From Escherichia coli (GTDB taxonomy: Bacteria; Pseudomonadota; Gammaproteobacteria; Enterobacterales; Enterobacteriaceae): DNA of 64,000 nt. Location of the stretch: NCBI RefSeq assembly GCF_003334305.1, contig NZ_QOWS01000004.1. The stretch is one strand, 5' to 3'. Made by a program: the position numbers and the translations under genes. Numbering within the stretch: position 1 is the stretch's first letter; each line of letters begins with the position of its first letter. Below are positions 11,776-54,936 of the stretch, piece after piece. The notes beneath the pieces were generated by a model. It was not told where the DNA came from. It ran no database searches and was given only the letters and a program-made list of their open reading frames with translations.

Positions 11776-12543
11776 TTATTCATTTTTCGCAACCAGCAAA
11801 GAGAGATCCTGCTTCGCCAGCGCGCGACTGGCACTCTCCGGCAAACCGTCGTCTGTGATAATCTGATCAAACTCGCTTAATGGTAACGCCAGCCATGTCG
11901 CCACCTGACCATATTTCGTCGCATCACAGACCAAAACTCGCTGGCGGCTGGCACTGGCAATCGCCCGTTTCACCGTGACTTTATCTTCCGCTGGCGTAGA
12001 AATCCCCCGCACACTCCATGACGATGCAGAAATAAAAGCCTGATCAATCATCAGGCTGCGCAGCATGGTCGCAGCGGCTTCCCCGACACAGGAACGGTTT
12101 TCCCGACACACTGCACCGCCAGTGTGAATAATTGTGCAATTACTGTTGTCGAGCAAGTAGTTCGCAATAACGAAATCGTTTGTGACCACAGTCAGTGACT
12201 CCATGTGAATCAGATGCTGTGCTATCGCTAACGTGGTCGTTCCCGCATCCAGATAGATACAACTTCCCGGCTGAACAAGACTTGCCGCCAGCTTGCCAAT
12301 AGCCGCTTTTTGCGTCATTGCCAGCGCAGTTTTTACCTGATGAGAAGGTTCATGCGCCACGCGTCCCGGAGACTGGACGCCTCCGGACACCAGCACAACG
12401 GCTCCCTGCTGCTCCAGTTTTTGTAAATCCCGACGAATGGTCATATGTGACACATTCATTCTGTCCGTTAGTTCAGCAATACTGACAATGCCTTTTTCAG
12501 CTACCATCTCAAGGATGATTTGGCGACGCTCTACGGGTATCAA
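11776..12543 (-). CDS. ygbI: DeoR-family transcriptional regulator YgbI
   Basis: DeoR-like N-terminal HTH plus sugar-binding domain; start placed at in-frame TTG (255 aa); an upstream ATG at 12573 would give 265 aa. Confidence 0.8.
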   Translation of the reverse strand: MIPVERRQIILEMVAEKGIVSIAELTDRMNVSHMTIRRDLQKLEQQGAVVLVSGGVQSPGRVAHEPSHQVKTALAMTQKAAIGKLAASLVQPGSCIYLDAGTTTLAIAQHLIHMESLTVVTNDFVIANYLLDNSNCTIIHTGGAVCRENRSCVGEAAATMLRSLMIDQAFISASSWSVRGISTPAEDKVTVKRAIASASRQRVLVCDATKYGQVATWLALPLSEFDQIITDDGLPESASRALAKQDLSLLVAKNE

Positions 12544-12738
12544 CTTTTGCTCCTTCCTTTGTCCTGCTGACATTCTACGCTATTTGCCTGCGAAACGTGC
12601 GCGGCGCAACTAACGCTTAGTTCACATAAAATAACACACAATGTTAATTTATGTGAATCAGCTCACCATATCGTTATCTTCCAGCGCTTATATTCACAAT
12701 ATCAAACAAAATATCACTTAAATTAACAAGGAGAGCAG

Positions 12739-13647
12739 ATGAAAACGGGATCTGAGTTTCATGTCGGTATCGTTGGCTTAGGGTCAATGGGAATGGGAGC
12801 AGCACTGTCATGTGTCCGCGCAGGTCTTTCTACCTGGGGCGCAGACCTGAACAGCAATGCCTGCGCTACGTTGAAAGAGGCAGGTGCTTGCGGGGTTTCT
12901 GATAACGCCGCGACGTTTGCCGAAAAACTGGACGCTCTGCTGGTGCTGGTGGTCAATGCGGCCCAGGTTAAACAGGTGCTGTTTGGTGAAACAGGCGTTG
13001 CACAACATCTGAAACCCGGTACGGCAGTAATGGTTTCTTCCACTATCGCTAGTGCTGATGCGCAAGAAATTGCTACCGCTCTGGCTGGATTCGATCTGGA
13101 AATGCTGGATGCGCCAGTTTCTGGTGGTGCAGTAAAAGCCGCTAACGGTGAAATGACTGTCATGGCCTCCGGTAGCGATATTGCCTTTGAACGACTGGCA
13201 CCCGTGCTGGAAGCCGTTGCCGGAAAAGTTTATCGCATAGGTGCAGAACCGGGACTAGGTTCGACCGTAAAAATTATTCACCAGTTGTTAGCGGGCGTAC
13301 ATATTGCTGCCGGAGCCGAAGCGATGGCACTTGCAGCCCGTGCGGGGATCCCGCTGGATGTGATGTATGACGTCGTGACCAATGCCGCCGGAAATTCCTG
13401 GATGTTCGAAAACCGGATGCGTCATGTGGTGGATGGCGATTACACCCCGCATTCAGCCGTCGATATTTTTGTTAAGGATCTTGGTCTGGTTGCCGATACA
13501 GCCAAAGCCCTGCACTTCCCGCTGCCATTGGCCTCAACAGCATTGAATATGTTCACCAGCGCCAGTAACGCAGGTTACGGGAAAGAAGACGATAGCGCAG
13601 TTATCAAGATTTTCTCTGGCATCACTCTACCGGGAGCGAAATCATGA
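12739..13647 (+). CDS. ygbJ: NAD-dependent 3-hydroxyisobutyrate-dehydrogenase-family enzyme (L-threonate dehydrogenase type)
   Basis: 302 aa; N-terminal GxGxxG Rossmann motif. Confidence 0.88.
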   Translation: MKTGSEFHVGIVGLGSMGMGAALSCVRAGLSTWGADLNSNACATLKEAGACGVSDNAATFAEKLDALLVLVVNAAQVKQVLFGETGVAQHLKPGTAVMVSSTIASADAQEIATALAGFDLEMLDAPVSGGAVKAANGEMTVMASGSDIAFERLAPVLEAVAGKVYRIGAEPGLGSTVKIIHQLLAGVHIAAGAEAMALAARAGIPLDVMYDVVTNAAGNSWMFENRMRHVVDGDYTPHSAVDIFVKDLGLVADTAKALHFPLPLASTALNMFTSASNAGYGKEDDSAVIKIFSGITLPGAKS

Positions 13648-14906
13648 TCAAGATTGGCGTTATCGCCGATGATTTTACCGGCGCGACGGATATCGCCAGT
13701 TTTCTGGTGGAAAACGGTCTACCAACGGTACAAATTAACGGTGTTCCAACAGGTAAAATGCCGGAAGCAATCGACGCACTGGTGATCAGCCTGAAAACGC
13801 GCTCCTGTCCGGTGGTTGAAGCCACACAGCAATCGCTGGCGGCTCTGAGCTGGTTGCAACAGCAAGGTTGCAAACAGATCTATTTCAAATACTGCTCTAC
13901 TTTCGACAGTACGGCGAAAGGTAATATCGGCCCGGTTACCGATGCATTAATGGATGCTCTCGACACGCCGTTTACGGTCTTCTCTCCGGCCCTGCCGGTC
14001 AACGGACGTACGGTTTATCAGGGGTATTTGTTCGTAATGAATCAACTGCTGGCCGAATCCGGGATGCGCCATCACCCGGTAAATCCCATGACCGACAGCT
14101 ATCTTCCCCGTCTGGTTGAAGCGCAATCCACAGGGCGCTGCGGCGTCGTTTCGGCACATGTTTTCGAACAAGGTGTGGATGCCGTTCGTCAAGAGCTGGC
14201 TCGCTTACAGCAAGAGGGCTACCGCTACGCGGTGCTTGATGCGCTGACCGAACACCATCTGGAAATTCAGGGAGAAGCCTTGCGCGATGCCCCACTGGTA
14301 ACGGGTGGTTCTGGTCTGGCGATTGGCCTGGCCCGGCAGTGGGCGCAAGAAAACGGTAACCAGGCTCGCGAAGCAGGGCGTCCGCTCGCTGGGCGCGGCG
14401 TAGTGCTCTCCGGTTCATGCTCTCAAATGACCAACCGCCAGGTGGCACATTACCGTCAAATTGCACCAGCCCGTGAAGTTGATGTGGCACGCTGCCTCTC
14501 AACCGAAACTCTGGCCGCTTATGCACACGAACTGGCAGAGTGGGTTCTGGGCCAGGAAAGTGTACTTGCTCCACTGGTTTTTGCCACCGCCAGCACTGAC
14601 GCATTGGCAGCAATTCAACAGCAATACGGTGCACAAAAAGCCAGTCAGGCAGTAGAAACTCTATTTTCTAAACTAGCGGCGCGGTTAGCAGCGGAAGGCG
14701 TGACACGCTTTATTGTCGCAGGCGGTGAGACCTCCGGCGTAGTCACACAGAGCCTGGGCATAAAAGGGTTTCATATTGGCCCAACCATTTCTCCCGGCGT
14801 GCCGTGGGTAAACGCACTGGATAAGCCTGTCTCACTCGCCCTTAAATCTGGCAACTTCGGTGATGAAGCCTTTTTTTCACGAGCCCAAAGAGAGTTTTTA
14901 TCATGA
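13644..14906 (+). CDS. ygbK: Four-carbon acid sugar kinase (DUF1537; 3-oxo-tetronate kinase type)
   Basis: 420 aa starting MIKIGVIADDFTGATD; ATGA overlap with ygbJ. Confidence 0.85.
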   Translation: MIKIGVIADDFTGATDIASFLVENGLPTVQINGVPTGKMPEAIDALVISLKTRSCPVVEATQQSLAALSWLQQQGCKQIYFKYCSTFDSTAKGNIGPVTDALMDALDTPFTVFSPALPVNGRTVYQGYLFVMNQLLAESGMRHHPVNPMTDSYLPRLVEAQSTGRCGVVSAHVFEQGVDAVRQELARLQQEGYRYAVLDALTEHHLEIQGEALRDAPLVTGGSGLAIGLARQWAQENGNQAREAGRPLAGRGVVLSGSCSQMTNRQVAHYRQIAPAREVDVARCLSTETLAAYAHELAEWVLGQESVLAPLVFATASTDALAAIQQQYGAQKASQAVETLFSKLAARLAAEGVTRFIVAGGETSGVVTQSLGIKGFHIGPTISPGVPWVNALDKPVSLALKSGNFGDEAFFSRAQREFLS

Positions 14907-15541
14907 GCGATTTCGCAAAAGTAGAGCAGTCTTTGCGAGAGGAGATGACGCGGATTGCCAGTTCATTCTTTCAGCGCGGCTATGCAACCGGTTCGGCTGG
15001 CAATCTGTCGCTGCTTTTACCTGACGGGAATTTACTGGCGACACCGACAGGTTCATGCCTGGGCAATCTCGATCCGCAGCGGCTTTCCAAAGTCGCCGCG
15101 GATGGCGAATGGTTAAGTGGTGACAAACCCTCAAAAGAGGTGCTCTTTCATCTGGCGCTGTATCGCAACAATCCGCGCTGTAAAGCGGTGGTGCATTTGC
15201 ACAGCACATGGTCGACGGCGCTTTCCTGCCTGCAAGGGCTGGACAGCAGCAACGTTATTCGTCCGTTCACACCATACGTGGTGATGCGGATGGGAAATGT
15301 CCCGCTGGTGCCTTATTACCGACCGGGCGATAAACGCATCGCACAGGATCTGGCGGAACTGGCAGCAGACAATCAGGCTTTTTTACTGGCAAATCATGGC
15401 CCAGTGGTTTGCGGTGAAAGCCTGCAAGAAGCCGCCAACAATATGGAAGAGCTGGAGGAAACGGCAAAGCTGATTTTTATTCTCGGTGACCGCCCGATCC
15501 GTTATCTGACCGCAGGTGAAATTGCGGAATTAAGGAGTTAA
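14903..15541 (+). CDS. ygbL: Class II aldolase/adducin-family protein (3-oxo-tetronate 4-phosphate decarboxylase type)
   Basis: 212 aa; ATGA overlap with ygbK. Confidence 0.85.
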
Positions 15542-15545
15542 TGCA

Positions 15546-16322
15546 ATGCCTCGTTTTGCAGCTAATTTATCCATGATGTTCACCGAAGTGCCTTTTATTG
15601 AACGCTTCGCCGCAGCGCGAAAAGCCGGGTTCGATGCTGTGGAATTTCTGTTTCCCTATGACTACTCCACCCTGCAAATCCAAAAGCAACTGGAGCAAAA
15701 CCATCTGACACTGGCGCTGTTCAATACCGCTCCCGGAGATATTAATGCGGGGGAATGGGGATTATCCGCCCTTCCCGGACGTGAGCACGAAGCACACGCA
15801 GACATCGACCTGGCACTGGAATATGCATTGGCGCTCAATTGTGAACAAGTCCATGTGATGGCAGGCGTCGTGCCCGCTGGCGAAGACGCTGAACGGTACC
15901 GGGCAGTATTTATCGATAATCTCCGCTACGCTGCCGACCGCTTTGCGCTACACGGCAAGCGAATATTAGTTGAAGCACTCAGCCCCGACGTTAAGCCTCA
16001 TTATCTCTTCTCCAGCCAGTATCAGGCACTGGCTATTGTTGAAGAGGTTGCGCGAGATAACGTGTTTATTCAACTAGATACTTTTCATGCGCAAAAAGTA
16101 GATGGCAACCTGACGCATTTAATCCGCGACTACGCTGGGAAATATGCGCACGTACAAATTGCCGGACTACCTGATCGACATGAACCGGACGATGGAGAAA
16201 TCAACTATCCGTGGCTGTTCCGCCTGTTCGATGAGGTGGGATATCAGGGCTGGATCGGTTGTGAATATAAACCTCGTGGCCTCACCGAAGAAGGGCTTGG
16301 CTGGTTTGACGCCTGGCGCTAA
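15546..16322 (+). CDS. ygbM: Hydroxypyruvate-isomerase-like TIM-barrel protein (2-oxo-tetronate isomerase type)
   Basis: 258 aa. Confidence 0.85.
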
Positions 16323-16410
16323 TTCGTTAAATCCCTAATTACAACGTACCCATACATCCCCCCATCTACGGATGGGGTAGGTTAACTATAACTTTCAGAC
16401 AGGGTTTCCC

Positions 16411-17775
16411 ATGTCCACAATTACATTGTTATGCATTGCGTTAGCTGGCGTAATCATGCTGTTGCTGCTGGTCATCAAGGCAAAGGTACAACCATTCGTT
16501 GCTCTGCTCCTCGTCAGCCTGTTAGTCGCACTTGCGGCGGGTATACCGGCGGGCGAAGTGGGTAAAGTGATGATCGCCGGGATGGGCGGTGTGCTTGGTT
16601 CCGTCACTATTATTATTGGTCTGGGCGCTATGCTGGGGCGTATGATCGAACACTCTGGTGGTGCAGAGTCACTGGCTAATTATTTCAGTCGCAAGTTAGG
16701 TGACAAACGAACTATCGCTGCGCTGACTCTGGCAGCGTTCTTCCTCGGTATTCCCGTCTTCTTTGATGTCGGCTTTATTATTCTTGCGCCAATCATTTAC
16801 GGTTTTGCCAAGGTTGCCAAAATATCGCCACTCAAATTTGGCCTGCCTGTCGCTGGAATCATGCTAACTGTTCATGTGGCGGTACCGCCGCATCCAGGCC
16901 CTGTCGCCGCAGCGGGGTTACTCCACGCAGACATCGGCTGGCTAACCATCATCGGTATTGCGATTTCTATTCCCGTAGGGATTGTTGGCTACTTTGCAGC
17001 GAAAATAATCAATACGCGCCAATATGCGATGTCGGTGGAAGTACTGGAACAGATGCAACTGGCTCCGGCCAGTGAGGAAGGCGCAACAAAATTAAGCGAT
17101 AAAATAAATCCACCGGGCGTCGCGCTGGTCACCTCGCTAATTGTTATTCCTATCGCGATTATCATGGCGGGTACGGTTTCCGCAACACTGATGCCGCCTT
17201 CGCATCCCCTGCTTGGTACGCTACAGCTGATCGGCTCACCAATGGTAGCTCTAATGATTGCGCTGGTGCTGGCATTCTGGTTATTGGCTTTACGTCGCGG
17301 CTGGAGCTTACAACACACCAGCGACATTATGGGCTCAGCCCTTCCCACTGCGGCGGTAGTGATTTTGGTTACTGGTGCTGGAGGGGTATTTGGCAAAGTG
17401 CTGGTGGAATCGGGCGTCGGCAAAGCCCTTGCCAATATGCTACAAATGATTGACCTGCCTCTGTTACCAGCCGCATTTATTATTTCACTGGCTCTGCGTG
17501 CATCGCAGGGGTCAGCAACCGTAGCAATCCTGACAACCGGCGGGTTACTCTCAGAAGCGGTGATGGGATTGAATCCGATTCAGTGCGTATTGGTGACGCT
17601 GGCAGCCTGCTTTGGTGGGCTTGGCGCGTCACATATTAATGACTCAGGGTTCTGGATTGTGACCAAATATCTGGGGTTGTCGGTAGCAGACGGTCTGAAA
17701 ACCTGGACAGTGTTAACGACCATTCTCGGTTTTACCGGATTCTTAATTACCTGGTGCGTATGGGCGGTAATTTGA
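16411..17775 (+). CDS. ygbN: GntP-family permease
   Basis: 454 aa, highly hydrophobic multi-pass protein. Confidence 0.88.
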   Translation: MSTITLLCIALAGVIMLLLLVIKAKVQPFVALLLVSLLVALAAGIPAGEVGKVMIAGMGGVLGSVTIIIGLGAMLGRMIEHSGGAESLANYFSRKLGDKRTIAALTLAAFFLGIPVFFDVGFIILAPIIYGFAKVAKISPLKFGLPVAGIMLTVHVAVPPHPGPVAAAGLLHADIGWLTIIGIAISIPVGIVGYFAAKIINTRQYAMSVEVLEQMQLAPASEEGATKLSDKINPPGVALVTSLIVIPIAIIMAGTVSATLMPPSHPLLGTLQLIGSPMVALMIALVLAFWLLALRRGWSLQHTSDIMGSALPTAAVVILVTGAGGVFGKVLVESGVGKALANMLQMIDLPLLPAAFIISLALRASQGSATVAILTTGGLLSEAVMGLNPIQCVLVTLAACFGGLGASHINDSGFWIVTKYLGLSVADGLKTWTVLTTILGFTGFLITWCVWAVI

Positions 17776-17784
17776 CCTTAATAA

Positions 17785-17815
17785 AAAGGTCCGATGGGCA
17801 TCGGACCTTTTATTT
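17785..17815. terminator. Bidirectional rho-independent terminator between ygbN and decarboxylase operon
   Basis: aaaggtccgatg-gg-catcggaccttt, 12-bp perfect stem followed by T-rich run. Confidence 0.65.
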
Positions 17816-18050
17816 AACGCTTACCTTCCACCAGCAGCGGCGGGATGCTCGGCACCATTGGCGCGTCATCAATATCTTTCTGCGTCATGCGGAACGCTTC
17901 GGGATAATGTTCGCGGCTGGTACGGCGCAGCGGTTCGGTATCGCGCCAGGTATAAAGGCAATGCTGGCACTGATATACCGTCCAGACATCTTTCACCGGC
18001 GATTTCGCCATCACTTCAATCTGTTCATCGGCACAACGTGGACAAATCAT
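17814..18050 (-). CDS. ecdD: Small zinc-ribbon subunit of UbiD-type hydroxyarylic acid decarboxylase (EcdD/VdcD/BsdD family)
   Basis: 78 aa with CPRC...CQHC; immediately downstream of the UbiD-like gene. Confidence 0.75.
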   Translation of the reverse strand: MICPRCADEQIEVMAKSPVKDVWTVYQCQHCLYTWRDTEPLRRTSREHYPEAFRMTQKDIDDAPMVPSIPPLLVEGKR

Positions 18051-18060
18051 CTTCTTCTCC

Positions 18061-19488
18061 TTATTTACGTGCAGCCAGCATAGCGGTCAGTTTTTCAGCC
18101 CAGGCTTTGGTTTCCGGTAAATCCACCACCGGTTGGCTGTAGTGACCACGGTTGTCCGGGGCGACAGGCGTAGTGGCGTCGATAATCAGCTTGTCGGTGA
18201 TCCCCGCAGGGCTTGAGCCTGGATCGAGTTCCAGCACGGACATATTCGGCAACTGCACCAAATCCCCTGCCGGGTTCACTTTCGAGGAGAGCGCCCACAT
18301 CACCTGCGGCAGGTTGAACGGGTCAACGTCTTCATCGACCATAATCACCATCTTCACGTAGCCCAGACCATGCGGCGTGGTCATTGCGCGCAGGCCCACC
18401 GCGCGGGCAAAGCCGCCGTAGCGTTTTTTGGTGGAGATAATCGCCAGCAGGCCATGGGTGTACATGGCGTTTACCGCCTGCACTTCAGGGAACTCGGCTT
18501 TCAGCTGCTGATACAGCGGCACGCAGGTGGCTGGCCCCATCAGGTAGTCGATTTCGGTCCACGGCATACCGAGGTACAGCGATTCGAAAATCGGCCTGGT
18601 GCGGTAAGAGACTTTATCGATGCGCACCACGGTCATGTTACGCCCGCCGGAGTAGTGCCCGGTAAACTCACCGAACGGCCCTTCGATTTCGCGTTTACGG
18701 CTTTCGATAACCCCTTCGAGGATCACTTCTGAACCCCACGGCACATCAAAACCGGTCAGCGGGGCGGTGGCGATCGGGTACGGGCTTTCACGCAGCGCGC
18801 CTGCCATTTCATACTCAGACTGATCGTATTTCAGCGGCGTGGCCCCCATCAGCGTGATGATCGGATCGTTACCGAGCGTGATCGCAATCGGCAGATCTTC
18901 ACCGCGCTCTTCTGCTTTATGCAGATGCAGGGCGATATCGTGCATCGGCACCGGTTGCAGGCCGAGCTTACGCTTGCCCTTCACTTCCATGCGGTAGATG
19001 CCGACGTTCTGCTTGCCGAAGTTATCTGGGTCGAGCGGATCGCGGGAAACCACGCAGGCTTTGTCGAGATAGAAACCGCCATCGCCATCGTTTAAACGAA
19101 ACAGCGGCAGGATATCGAACAGGTTAATCTCTTCGCCATCGACGGTGTTCTGCGCCCAGGCTGGATTGGCGCGGCGCTCCGGGGCAATCGGGAAGTTATC
19201 CCAGCGGCGGATAAACTCATCAATCTGCTTTTTGACCGGGGTGTTTGGTGGCAGGCCAAGGGAAATCGCGTGGTTCTGCCAGGAACCGATGGTATTCATC
19301 GTCACGCGGGCATCGGTAAAGCCGCGAATATTATCAAACCACAGCGCGGGCGCGCCGTCGCCGATACGCCCGGTGGCGTTAGCTGCTGCTGCCAGATCCG
19401 GCTCAGCGTTCACCTCTTCGCTGATTTTCAGTAACTGGCCGTGGTCATCAAGCGCCTGTAAAAAGCTGCGTAAATCATCAAATGCCAT
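18061..19488 (-). CDS. ecdC: UbiD-family reversible (de)carboxylase (EcdC/VdcC/BsdC type)
   Basis: 475-aa ORF recognised as a UbiD-family decarboxylase; ATGA overlap with the upstream UbiX-like gene. Confidence 0.85.
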   Translation of the reverse strand: MAFDDLRSFLQALDDHGQLLKISEEVNAEPDLAAAANATGRIGDGAPALWFDNIRGFTDARVTMNTIGSWQNHAISLGLPPNTPVKKQIDEFIRRWDNFPIAPERRANPAWAQNTVDGEEINLFDILPLFRLNDGDGGFYLDKACVVSRDPLDPDNFGKQNVGIYRMEVKGKRKLGLQPVPMHDIALHLHKAEERGEDLPIAITLGNDPIITLMGATPLKYDQSEYEMAGALRESPYPIATAPLTGFDVPWGSEVILEGVIESRKREIEGPFGEFTGHYSGGRNMTVVRIDKVSYRTRPIFESLYLGMPWTEIDYLMGPATCVPLYQQLKAEFPEVQAVNAMYTHGLLAIISTKKRYGGFARAVGLRAMTTPHGLGYVKMVIMVDEDVDPFNLPQVMWALSSKVNPAGDLVQLPNMSVLELDPGSSPAGITDKLIIDATTPVAPDNRGHYSQPVVDLPETKAWAEKLTAMLAARK

Positions 19489-20081
19489 TATTCATTCTCC
19501 TGAGAAAAATTCCGGGCCTGCGGCAATCCTTGCCAGCGCCTGGCATGGGGATGTTCGAGGCCAAATTTATCCAGCACGCGGGCTACCACATGGTGGACAA
19601 TGTCATCTACCGTTTCGGGATGGTTATAAAAGGCAGGCATCGGCGGCACCATCGCCACGCCCATGCGTGAAAGTGCGAGCATATTTTCGAGATGGATGGT
19701 GCTAAGCGGCATTTCACGCGGCACCAGCACCAGTTTGCGGCCTTCTTTGAGCACGACGTCCGCCGCGCGCCCTACCAGGCCATCGGCGTAACCAGCGCGG
19801 ATACCGGCGAGCGTTTTCATACTGCACGGAATAACGATCATGCCGTCGGTACGAAAAGAACCGGATGAGATGATCGCCGCCTGATCCGCCGGGTTATGGC
19901 TGAAGTCTGCGAGGGCAGCAACATCGCGAGCGCTGTAAGGCGTTTCCAGTTCAATGGTGGTTTTCGCCCACTTCGACATCACCAGATGAGTCTCGACATT
20001 CGGCATCTCCCGCAGCGCTTGCAGTAATGCCACACCAAGAGGCGCACCGGTAGCCCCTGTCATCCCGACGATCAGTTTCAT
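19488..20081 (-). CDS. ecdB: UbiX-family flavin prenyltransferase (EcdB/Pad1 type)
   Basis: 197 aa starting MKLIVGMTGATGAPLG. Confidence 0.85.
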   Translation of the reverse strand: MKLIVGMTGATGAPLGVALLQALREMPNVETHLVMSKWAKTTIELETPYSARDVAALADFSHNPADQAAIISSGSFRTDGMIVIPCSMKTLAGIRAGYADGLVGRAADVVLKEGRKLVLVPREMPLSTIHLENMLALSRMGVAMVPPMPAFYNHPETVDDIVHHVVARVLDKFGLEHPHARRWQGLPQARNFSQENE

Positions 20082-20097
20082 TGCTTATCCTCTTAAT

Positions 20098-20113
20098 TGT
20101 TCGTATACGAACA
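20098..20113. promoter_or_regulatory. Perfect 16-bp palindrome, candidate MarR-family operator
   Basis: tgttcgtatacgaaca lies 17 bp upstream of ecdB ATG in the divergent promoter region shared with the MarR-like gene. Confidence 0.5.
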
Positions 20114-20227
20114 TTATTATTAACATACTCCTTCATTTCCACAGCGGCAAGGATTGAAAAGTAACAACATCTTCTTCGTCACTAAAAAACCGCTATGATA
20201 GCGACAGAGAATTAGCCCGGAGTTTAC

Positions 20228-20635
20228 ATGGCGTTACGAAATAAAGCGTTCCATCAGTTACGACAGCTTTTTCAGCAGCACACGGCTCGCTGGCAGCACG
20301 AGTTACCTGACCTGACCAAACCACAGTACGCGGTGATGCGCGCCATTGCTGATAAACCTGGTATCGAACAGGTGGCACTGATAGAAGCAGCTGTCAGCAC
20401 CAAAGCAACGTTAGCAGAAATGTTGGCAAGAATGGAAAATCGTGGCTTAGTCAGACGTGAACATGACCCCGCTGATAAGCGGCGACGCTTTGTCTGGTTG
20501 ACTGCCGAAGGCGAAAAGATACTTGCTGCGGCGATACCCATTGGTGACAGCGTGGATGAGGAATTTTTGGGGCGTTTGAGTGGAGAAGAGCAGGAGCTGT
20601 TTATGCAGCTGGTGCGCAAGATGATGAACGCATAG
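20228..20635 (+). CDS. MarR/SlyA-family transcriptional regulator
   Basis: 135 aa; divergent from the decarboxylase operon. Confidence 0.85.
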   Translation: MALRNKAFHQLRQLFQQHTARWQHELPDLTKPQYAVMRAIADKPGIEQVALIEAAVSTKATLAEMLARMENRGLVRREHDPADKRRRFVWLTAEGEKILAAAIPIGDSVDEEFLGRLSGEEQELFMQLVRKMMNA

Positions 20636-54618: not shown

Positions 54619-54742
54619 AGTTAGCTCCAATTTCCGTAAGGCAAAAAAAAAGAAAGGTAACTTCCCCCGCGAGAGGGAAGTTACCTTTCTCATTATCTCT
54701 GGTAACTGGAGATAATTTTTAGCATAACGGCATAACTGCTAA

Positions 54743-54758
54743 TGTGATCGTAATCACA
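54743..54758. promoter_or_regulatory. Perfect consensus CRP-binding site in ygcW-yqcE divergent promoter region
   Basis: TGTGAtcgtaaTCACA, both half-sites exact with 6-bp spacer. Confidence 0.6.
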
Positions 54759-54936
54759 GTGTGATATTCGTATTGTCAAATAGTTTTAAAAAGCAGAAGC
54801 GTGATTACTCTCACACAACACCTCTGCTTTCCATGTTATTTCTTATTGCAATTACTAGAGACCTGAGAAAAGTAATCCACCTGAAAGGGCGGCTTACTTT
54901 TCTCTTTTTTTTGTCTATTACAAATGGGAATACGAT

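Follow-up and report, generated by a model that had tools for sequence, protein, structure and literature searches.

Predicted operator and promoter layout for YgbI and CRP in the control region of the Escherichia coli L-threonate operon ygbJKLMN

We analyzed the divergent spacer between ygbI and ygbJ in a 64,000-nucleotide window of Escherichia coli DNA (NCBI RefSeq assembly GCF_003334305.1, contig NZ_QOWS01000004.1), where the regulator gene ygbI and the genes ygbJKLMN together span positions 11776 to 17775. We propose, at a probability of roughly 0.7, that ygbJKLMN is an operon for L-threonate catabolism that includes its own permease, that it is kept off by YgbI and probably turned on by the cyclic AMP (cAMP) receptor protein CRP, and that YgbI acts through operators built from TGTKA units. 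The locus, the YgbI repressor, its target, and the CRP site are already known from the literature. The only additions of the present analysis are a predicted operator and promoter layout and several corrections of detail.

The YgbI regulon has been described in E. coli K-12 (Gao et al., 2021 NAR; Sastry et al., 2019, iModulon; Guzman et al., 2019). Chromatin immunoprecipitation with exonuclease treatment (ChIP-exo) gave a single YgbI site genome-wide, between ygbI and ygbJ, and in RNA sequencing (RNA-seq) deletion of ygbI raised ygbJ, K, L, M, and N by log2 5.6, 5.2, 5.1, 4.6, and 4.0, respectively (16- to 47-fold). Loss of ygbI lets K-12 grow on L-tartrate. In laboratory evolution on m-tartrate, the selected ygbI mutations over-express ygbI as well as ygbJ-N, and the iModulon study agrees with this conclusion on ygbI. 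The K-12 spacer differs from that of the window by 2 substitutions, neither of which lies inside a site proposed below. Unlike the layout presented here, the published K-12 work gives no sequence for the operator, regards ygbLM and ygbN as units of their own under indirect regulation, and leaves CRP unmentioned.

To define the control region, we began from the ends of the flanking genes. The preliminary description of this DNA had an intergenic region of 165 bp, a figure that holds only for an obsolete annotation in which ygbI is its longest open reading frame (ORF; 11776-12573, minus strand, 265 aa from the ATG at 12573). Both RefSeq and the K-12 annotation start ygbI at the TTG at 12543, a position kept as TTG, GTG, or ATG in the 14 taxa compared below, so the true ygbI-ygbJ spacer is 195 bp. 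Mendoza-Vargas (2009) mapped the ygbI transcription start to +9 of the old ATG, with a -10 element given as "CGTAGAAT"; this mapped start falls within the old 265-aa ORF.

The same description reported a long inverted repeat, ttcacataaa/tttatgtgaa, with a gap of 18 nt. The repeat is present where it was placed (perfect 10-nt arms at 12621-12630 and 12648-12657), but the gap is 17 nt and the arms are longer: in full, two 16-nt arms (12621-12636 and 12642-12657), complementary at 15 of 16 positions, flank a 5-nt spacer. Perfect 10-nt arms arose in 26 of 5000 dinucleotide shuffles of the spacer, and a repeat of the full quality in none of the 5000; the 64-kb window holds a repeat of equal quality in one other place. 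The inverted repeat is therefore real and statistically solid, and we infer that it serves as a YgbI operator.

The two arms are not the only copies of this sequence. Four copies in the spacer share the pattern TGTTw-N5-wGTGA, a 15-bp unit in which two TGTKA pentamers stand 10 bp apart, and a fifth, intragenic candidate lies within ygbI. A repeat finder recovered the arm sequence again at 12714-12728 and, more weakly, at 12702-12717; site C came from a weight-matrix scan. The putative operator units are as follows.

12621..12636 (unit 12622-12636), minus strand: putative site A', the left arm, TGTTATTTTATGTGA; matrix score 23.1.
12642..12657 (unit 12642-12656), plus strand: putative site A, the right arm, TGTTAATTTATGTGA(A); matrix score 24.8; its TGTGA is the left half of the CRP site.
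12694..12708, minus strand: putative site C, TGTTTGATATTGTGA; score 11.1; overlaps the -10 element and the predicted ygbJ start; TGTTy-N5-TGTKA is kept in other taxa.
12714..12728, minus strand: putative site B, TGTTAATTTAAGTGA; score 19.9; in the leader, just before the Shine-Dalgarno GGAG; conserved in 14/14 taxa.
12123..12137, plus strand: candidate intragenic auxiliary operator, site D, TGTGAATAATTGTGC; inside ygbI, over the codons C-T-I-I-H; score 14.8.

Sites B and C combine into a run of four pentamers with an exact 10-bp phase that spans about -7 to +28 relative to the predicted ygbJ start. The spacer has three occurrences of the 15-mer TCACWTAAAWTAACA, and the rest of the 64 kb has none (0.36 expected, allowing at most two mismatches), a count that is partly circular because the pattern was derived from the same sites. 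The 14 spacers together hold 89 TGTKA boxes, where shuffles give 21.6 ± 4.3; for same-strand pairs spaced by 10, 20, or 30 bp the count is 34 and the expectation 0.2. Relatedness among the 14 taxa means that these figures overstate independence. Thirteen taxa share an unchanged YgbI recognition helix, VSHMTIRRDxQKLE, and one would therefore expect the operator to be conserved as well. We infer that the pentamer pair TGTTw-N5-wGTGA is the YgbI operator unit.

To assess which elements of this layout are conserved, we compared the spacers between ygbI and ygbJ (ltnD in current nomenclature) from 14 taxa whose YgbI proteins are 60-100% identical to that of E. coli, retrieved through protein homologs and look-ups of contigs by exact protein. 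The set comprises Escherichia, Salmonella, Entomohabitans, Serratia, Pectobacterium, Dickeya, Pantoea, a Citrobacter copy, and several metagenomic relatives. The divergent ygbI/ltnD layout is kept even in unrelated genomic neighborhoods. Between the CRP half-site and the start of ltnD, the spacers align collinearly, and insertions or deletions do not exceed 1 bp until just before the start codon. Four blocks stand out: aaTGTTAaTtTtTGTGA (window 12640-12656, in at least 10 of the 14 taxa), the CaCc of the right CRP half-site, TAnATT (12689-12694), and a long block that runs from just after TAnATT to the Shine-Dalgarno sequence. Site A, the -10 element, site C, and site B are hence conserved and collinear in the 14 taxa, down to 60% YgbI identity. 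The left arm A' is the least conserved element. Complementarity of 12-16 out of 16 is confined to the seven taxa with a YgbI identity of 73% or more, among which the symmetry of the palindrome is kept through mirrored substitutions (16/16 in Salmonella, and 15/16 in P0041 despite numerous substitutions). Across the other seven, more distant taxa, left-arm complementarity is 6-9 out of 16 at best, which we took as background. The Citrobacter portucalensis copy, which lies beside a transposase (locus L014), was considered as a plasmid-borne fragment; this was rejected, as it had no plasmid match.

Site D, about 520 bp from site A, is the best match to the site-A weight matrix outside the spacer in the whole window. 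Among 147 codons that are amino-acid-conserved in five near relatives, only 13 are codon-identical, and 5 of these 13 form one consecutive run at 12124-12138, the only stretch of at least five codons identical in all five. This synonymous-site conservation points to selection on the DNA itself, and it is found in the same clade that has A'. We predict that site D is an auxiliary operator, as in looping of the DeoR type.

The preliminary description had also noted a CRP-like site, and one is found exactly where it was put, at 12652-12667. The CRP site and the two promoters around it are as follows.

12652..12667, plus strand: CRP site TGTGAatcagcTCACC, centered at 12659.5; 9 of 10 positions match the consensus half-sites TGTGA-N6-TCACA, within a tolerance of about 2 mismatches.
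12689..12694, plus strand: predicted ygbJ -10 element TATATT; TAnATT is kept at a constant spacing from the CRP site; predicted start near 12701.
12565..12577, minus strand: ygbI promoter P1; -10 element TAGAAT (12577..12572), mapped start at about 12565; the -10 element is kept elsewhere as CGTA(G/A)AAT.

A bare match to the CRP consensus is not significant, as the 64 kb contain four against 1.65 expected. The call rests instead on conservation of the position across taxa and on published binding. The list from CRP genomic SELEX (systematic evolution of ligands by exponential enrichment) includes ygbI<>ygbJ, and a 2026 Footprint-seq preprint gives "taTGTGAatcagaTCACCata, ygbI/ygbJ" as a novel CRP site in vitro, with an inferred dissociation constant (Kd) of 8.4 nM. 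The center of that region (2861360) is about 10 bp from our computed motif center (2861350.5), with a median error of about 5 bp in that paper, and the printed K-12 sequence identifies the motif unambiguously despite the offset. A second CRP site that would use the TCACA of the left arm was rejected: its partner half-site, TAACG, has only 1 of 5 matches.

Downstream of the CRP site, a pattern search found 37 bp between TGTGA and TAnATT in 8 of the first 10 taxa, with no conservation of the intervening bases, and in an anchored alignment of the 14, inspected by eye, TAnATT lies in the same column in most of the further taxa. If this hexamer is taken as -12 to -7, the start falls near 12701 and the CRP site is centered at -41.5, so we predict that CRP occupies the class II activator position at ygbJ. 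The CRP center lies 29.5 bp upstream of the first base of the predicted -10 element, and there is no good -35 element, a geometry that would fit class II promoters such as galP1 and melAB. Unlike these promoters, ygbJ has a left CRP half-site that doubles as part of a putative repressor unit, and a start that is predicted. We suggest that the ygb operon probably needs cAMP-CRP for switching on.

In Reg-Seq, YgbI was enriched by mass spectrometry on idnK promoter DNA, and the idnD-idnK spacer (K-12 locus L021, 3460-3485; NC_000913.3, 4494459-4494484) contains TGTCATTATTTGTGA-tgaaga-TCACG, with a matrix score of 17.9, which repeats the composite TGTyA-N5-TGTGA-N6-TCAC seen at ygbJ. This spacer may be a second YgbI target or a case of cross-binding. 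Yersinia pseudotuberculosis (locus L012, 6440-7771) has an orphan ygbI from which the ltnD-otnK-otnC-otnI-gntP operon is gone; site B and a Shine-Dalgarno remnant (tcaccaaaattaacattggagagg) are kept upstream of it. Within the window, the divergent ygcW-yqcE spacer (54650-54815) holds a perfect hairpin with 16-nt arms and a GC center (54651-54690), which adjoins two CRP-like sites, one of them perfect (TGTGATCGTAATCACA at 54743-54758). Published data include ygcW<>yqcE among the CRP targets, at a Kd of about 1.7 nM.

From these elements, a control mechanism can be proposed. Published experiments show that YgbI binds the 195-bp spacer and represses ygbJKLMN. The inverted repeat would amount to two operator units arranged tail to tail (A' and A), with two more putative units in tandem at 12694-12708 and 12714-12728. 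YgbI oligomers on A'/A (about -80 to -44) and on C/B (about -7 to +28) would bracket the promoter and cover its -10 element, start, and early leader. CRP, which in published work binds TGTGA-N6-TCACC at 12652-12667 in vitro, would act from the class II position; YgbI would also keep CRP away (anti-activation), since one and the same TGTGA belongs to unit A and to the CRP site. By analogy, the inducer would be a pathway intermediate, most likely a phosphorylated oxo-tetronate, and not L-threonate itself. Release of YgbI by this intermediate would allow CRP to activate. Since YgbI release and CRP activation would both be required, expression would depend on the presence of substrate together with low glucose. 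ygbI would be autoregulated from the same array, possibly helped by the intragenic unit at 12123-12137. A more elaborate version we hold as doubtful: YgbI would recognize a phased TGTKA array that shares one pentamer with the CRP site, so that repressor and activator would compete for the same five bp; in Escherichia, Salmonella, and their near relatives, the array would have gained the mirror-image unit and the intragenic unit, the latter maintained by synonymous-site selection; and a DeoR-style loop of about 520 bp could then shut both divergent promoters.

Repressors of the DeoR family typically sense phosphorylated intermediates. In Brucella, the DeoR-type repressor VdtR of the ltnD-otnK-otnI-denD-otnC operon binds several sites in the ltnD promoter; it is not released in vitro by L-threonate or D-erythronate, and induction requires metabolism of the substrate. 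The two systems differ in that vdtR lies inside its operon whereas ygbI is divergent, and in that CRP plays no part in Brucella, an alphaproteobacterium. E. coli DeoR, the regulator of the deo operon, belongs to the same family as YgbI, and its operator half-site likewise begins with TGTTA (TGTTAGAA-TTCTAACA). DeoR acts at deo through several separated operators and DNA looping. The ygb palindrome differs from the DeoR operator in that its TGTTA boxes face outward (TAACA-N5-TGTTA) and each of its units consists of a pentamer in direct repeat. By analogy with deo, we hypothesize that DNA looping may occur at the ygb locus.

Several points weigh against the proposal of an L-threonate operon repressed by YgbI from TGTKA units and activated by CRP, in addition to the circularity and relatedness that affect the counts above. 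In the literature searched, we found no YgbI operator sequence, mapped ygbJ start, in vivo test of CRP dependence, or inducer, nor any growth of E. coli on L-threonate or induction by it. The position of the ygbJ start is accordingly a predicted one, and the operator unit a putative one. The left arm cannot be essential to the system because it is absent from the seven more distant taxa. A study by SELEX with RpoD holoenzyme predicts "constitutive promoters" other than those of our layout, located inside the palindrome, and flags H-NS binding in the spacer, and a consensus promoter scan finds a promoter on the minus strand of the palindrome. Finally, the published ChIP-exo interval for YgbI (2859304-2859334 in NC_000913.2) converts to window 12591-12621, with the +1978 shift checked on ygbI and the.2 numbering checked on a second site, dhaK-dhaR. 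Of the left arm it reaches just the first base; the stretch under it is GC-rich and not conserved, although the interval may represent no more than the left edge of a large complex.

The promoter findings raise the question of whether the palindrome is mainly promoter DNA, i.e., two overlapping divergent sigma-70 promoters occluded by YgbI, in which each arm supplies a -35-like hexamer and the opposite arm a -10-like one (TTCACA-18-TATTTT for ygbI and TTCACA-16-GTTAAT for ygbJ). The hexamers of the RpoD-holoenzyme study are exactly these, and the minus-strand promoter of the scan also carries a TG extension, but the scan returned 2 sites where 1.1 are expected by chance. GTTAAT lacks the critical A at the second position of a -10 element, and with a ygbJ start near 12655 the CRP site would fall at about +4, a repressing position that would be odd for a catabolic operon. 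Furthermore, the mapped ygbI start uses a different -10 element, and the left arm is missing in 7 of the 14 taxa whereas TAnATT at 12689-12694 is kept at a fixed spacing from the CRP site. We therefore regard this explanation as unlikely, although the minus-strand promoter of the palindrome could be a second ygbI promoter that YgbI occludes directly. That the inverted repeat works instead as an RNA hairpin, be it a terminator or an attenuator, is scarcely credible. Its folding energies (-14.5 and -14.8 kcal/mol on the plus and minus strands; z-scores -5.7 and -4.6) would suit such a role, yet the stem is AT-rich, no U-tract comes after it on either strand, and a terminator scan finds no terminator there. 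The repeat should not even be transcribed, because it lies between the mapped leftward ygbI start at 12565 and the predicted rightward ygbJ start at 12701, and the leader itself (12701-12760) is unstructured (z = -0.6). We rejected the hairpin and terminator reading on these grounds.

The ChIP-exo coordinates allow a different division of labor, in which YgbI contacts the GC-rich stretch at about 12591-12621 (which contains TGCGCGGCGCA) and the palindrome and TGTKA boxes serve H-NS or a GntR/IdnR-like regulator. GntR and IdnR recognize TGTTAC-type sites. The converted interval and the flagged H-NS binding speak for this alternative. Set against them, the GC-rich stretch is not conserved even in Salmonella or Entomohabitans, though the YgbI recognition helix is invariant, while the TGTKA units travel with ygbI into unrelated contexts and remain beside the orphan ygbI of Yersinia. 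Moreover, the promoter DNA that pulled down YgbI, that of idnK, comes with a spacer bearing a TGTKA-type match. We consider this division improbable, somewhat more so than a palindrome made of promoters, and retain the TGTKA units as the candidate YgbI operators.

The assignment of the operon to L-threonate comes from its enzymes. We identified the six proteins with curated NCBIfam equivalog profiles, and all six exceed their cut-offs. The preliminary description, in which ygbI of the DeoR family is divergent from ygbJKLMN, agrees with the ORFs, all of which lie at the coordinates it gave.

11776..12543, minus strand: ygbI, DeoR/GlpR-family repressor, 255 aa, TTG start; NF040890 (trans_reg_YgbI), 484 bits (cut-off 400), residues 1-253.
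12739..13647, plus strand: ygbJ = ltnD (RefSeq name), L-threonate dehydrogenase; NF043037, 474 bits (cut-off 350).
13644..14906, plus strand: ygbK = otnK, 3-oxo-tetronate kinase of the DUF1537 family, intact at 420 aa; NF043035, 600 bits (cut-off 350).
14903..15541, plus strand: ygbL = otnC, decarboxylase of 3-oxo-tetronate-4-phosphate; NF043034, 335 bits (cut-off 250).
15546..16322, plus strand: ygbM = otnI, 2-oxo-tetronate isomerase; NF043033, 395 bits (cut-off 325).
16411..17775, plus strand: ygbN, GntP-family permease; NF007332, 827 bits (cut-off 524).
17783..17812, plus strand: likely operon terminator hairpin, AAAAGGTCCGATG...CATCGGACCTTTT then ATTT, from an inverted-repeat scan and the sequence.

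The RefSeq gene names at the locus are ygbI (DNA-binding transcriptional repressor YgbI), ltnD, otnK, ygbL, ygbM, and ygbN. YgbI has an N-terminal HTH_DeoR domain and a C-terminal DeoRC sensor domain, as expected of a DeoR/GlpR repressor (the record of P0004, a cluster representative with 100% identity along all 255 aa, lists PF08220 and PF00455). Overlaps of 4 bp join ygbJ/K and ygbK/L (13644-13647 and 14903-14906), and 4 bp separate ygbL from ygbM; with the T-run hairpin after ygbN, the intact locus reads as one operon. A simple terminator scan did not call the hairpin at 17783-17812. The RefSeq/PGAP name of ygbM, "HPr family phosphocarrier protein," derives from the description of NCBIfam NF007441. 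The product is a TIM-barrel isomerase whose orthologs carry PF01261 and which passes the 2-oxo-tetronate isomerase equivalog, so the name looks like an annotation error.

All four enzymes of the route from L-threonate to dihydroxyacetone phosphate (LtnD, OtnI, OtnK, and OtnC; steps summarized in PMC12540250) are present, with their genes contiguous or overlapping. The preliminary description had placed the genes in the family assigned to the catabolism of L-threonate as well as D-erythronate; the L-threonate enzymes bear this out, but the D-erythronate part falls with the absence of denD. A tblastn search of the 64-kb window with Salmonella DenD, which itself scores 451 bits against the NF043036 cut-off of 325, had a best E-value of 1.5. 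With ltnD present and denD, the D-erythronate dehydrogenase gene, absent, only the L-threonate branch is encoded in E. coli. The pathway of Zhang et al. (2016; LtnD, DenD, OtnI, OtnK, and OtnC) has in Salmonella an example with the same gene order and the same divergent ygbI, and the identity between the E. coli and Salmonella proteins is 80-86% for LtnD, OtnK, OtnC, and OtnI. In Salmonella and one relative, denD lies between otnI and a different GntP permease, whereas E. coli has no denD, and its ygbN is only 33% identical to, and not orthologous with, the permease of the Salmonella cluster (locus L006, 726-2222). Replacement of the transporter coincides with the presence or absence of denD.

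In K-12 MG1655, the kinase gene is damaged. otnK carries a 1-bp deletion (the T at window 14792 is missing; K-12 locus L001, 5336-6502), and the resulting frameshift yields 388 aa instead of 420, removes the last ~35 residues including LKSGNFG, and creates a 91-bp "gap" before ygbL. Of 4574 E. coli genomes, 371 match the K-12 allele exactly, and the other 4203 fall in the 95-99% identity band; a one-base difference (61 bases aligned, 98.4%) was seen in six genomes among the matches listed from that band. Intact otnK, as in the window, is the common E. coli form. As the intact locus reads as a single operon, the published "indirect" regulation of ygbLM and ygbN is probably an artefact of the K-12 otnK frameshift.

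The window is a piece of the E. coli chromosome from the mutS-rpoS region. Positions 11776-17775 are 100% identical to many E. coli chromosomes, and at least 80% of this segment is present in 4577 of 5426 complete genomes. The left flank is mutS-pphB; the right flank is a module for hydroxyarylic-acid decarboxylase BCD with MarR, followed by rpoS. This module (17814-20635, between ygbN and rpoS) encodes decarboxylase subunits D, C, and B and a MarR-family regulator. It is not in K-12, where rpoS directly follows ygbN, and Salmonella carries it on the opposite side of ygbI.

The proposed operator and promoter layout names concrete bases to mutate. The published regulatory and tartrate work on YgbI was all done in K-12 with its truncated otnK, whereas about 92% of the E. 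coli genomes that carry the segment (4203/4574) are without that frameshift. Physiological tests should therefore use a strain with an intact otnK. L-threonate arises when ascorbate is broken down, and the ygb operon may thus be relevant to the life of E. coli in the gut or on plant material.

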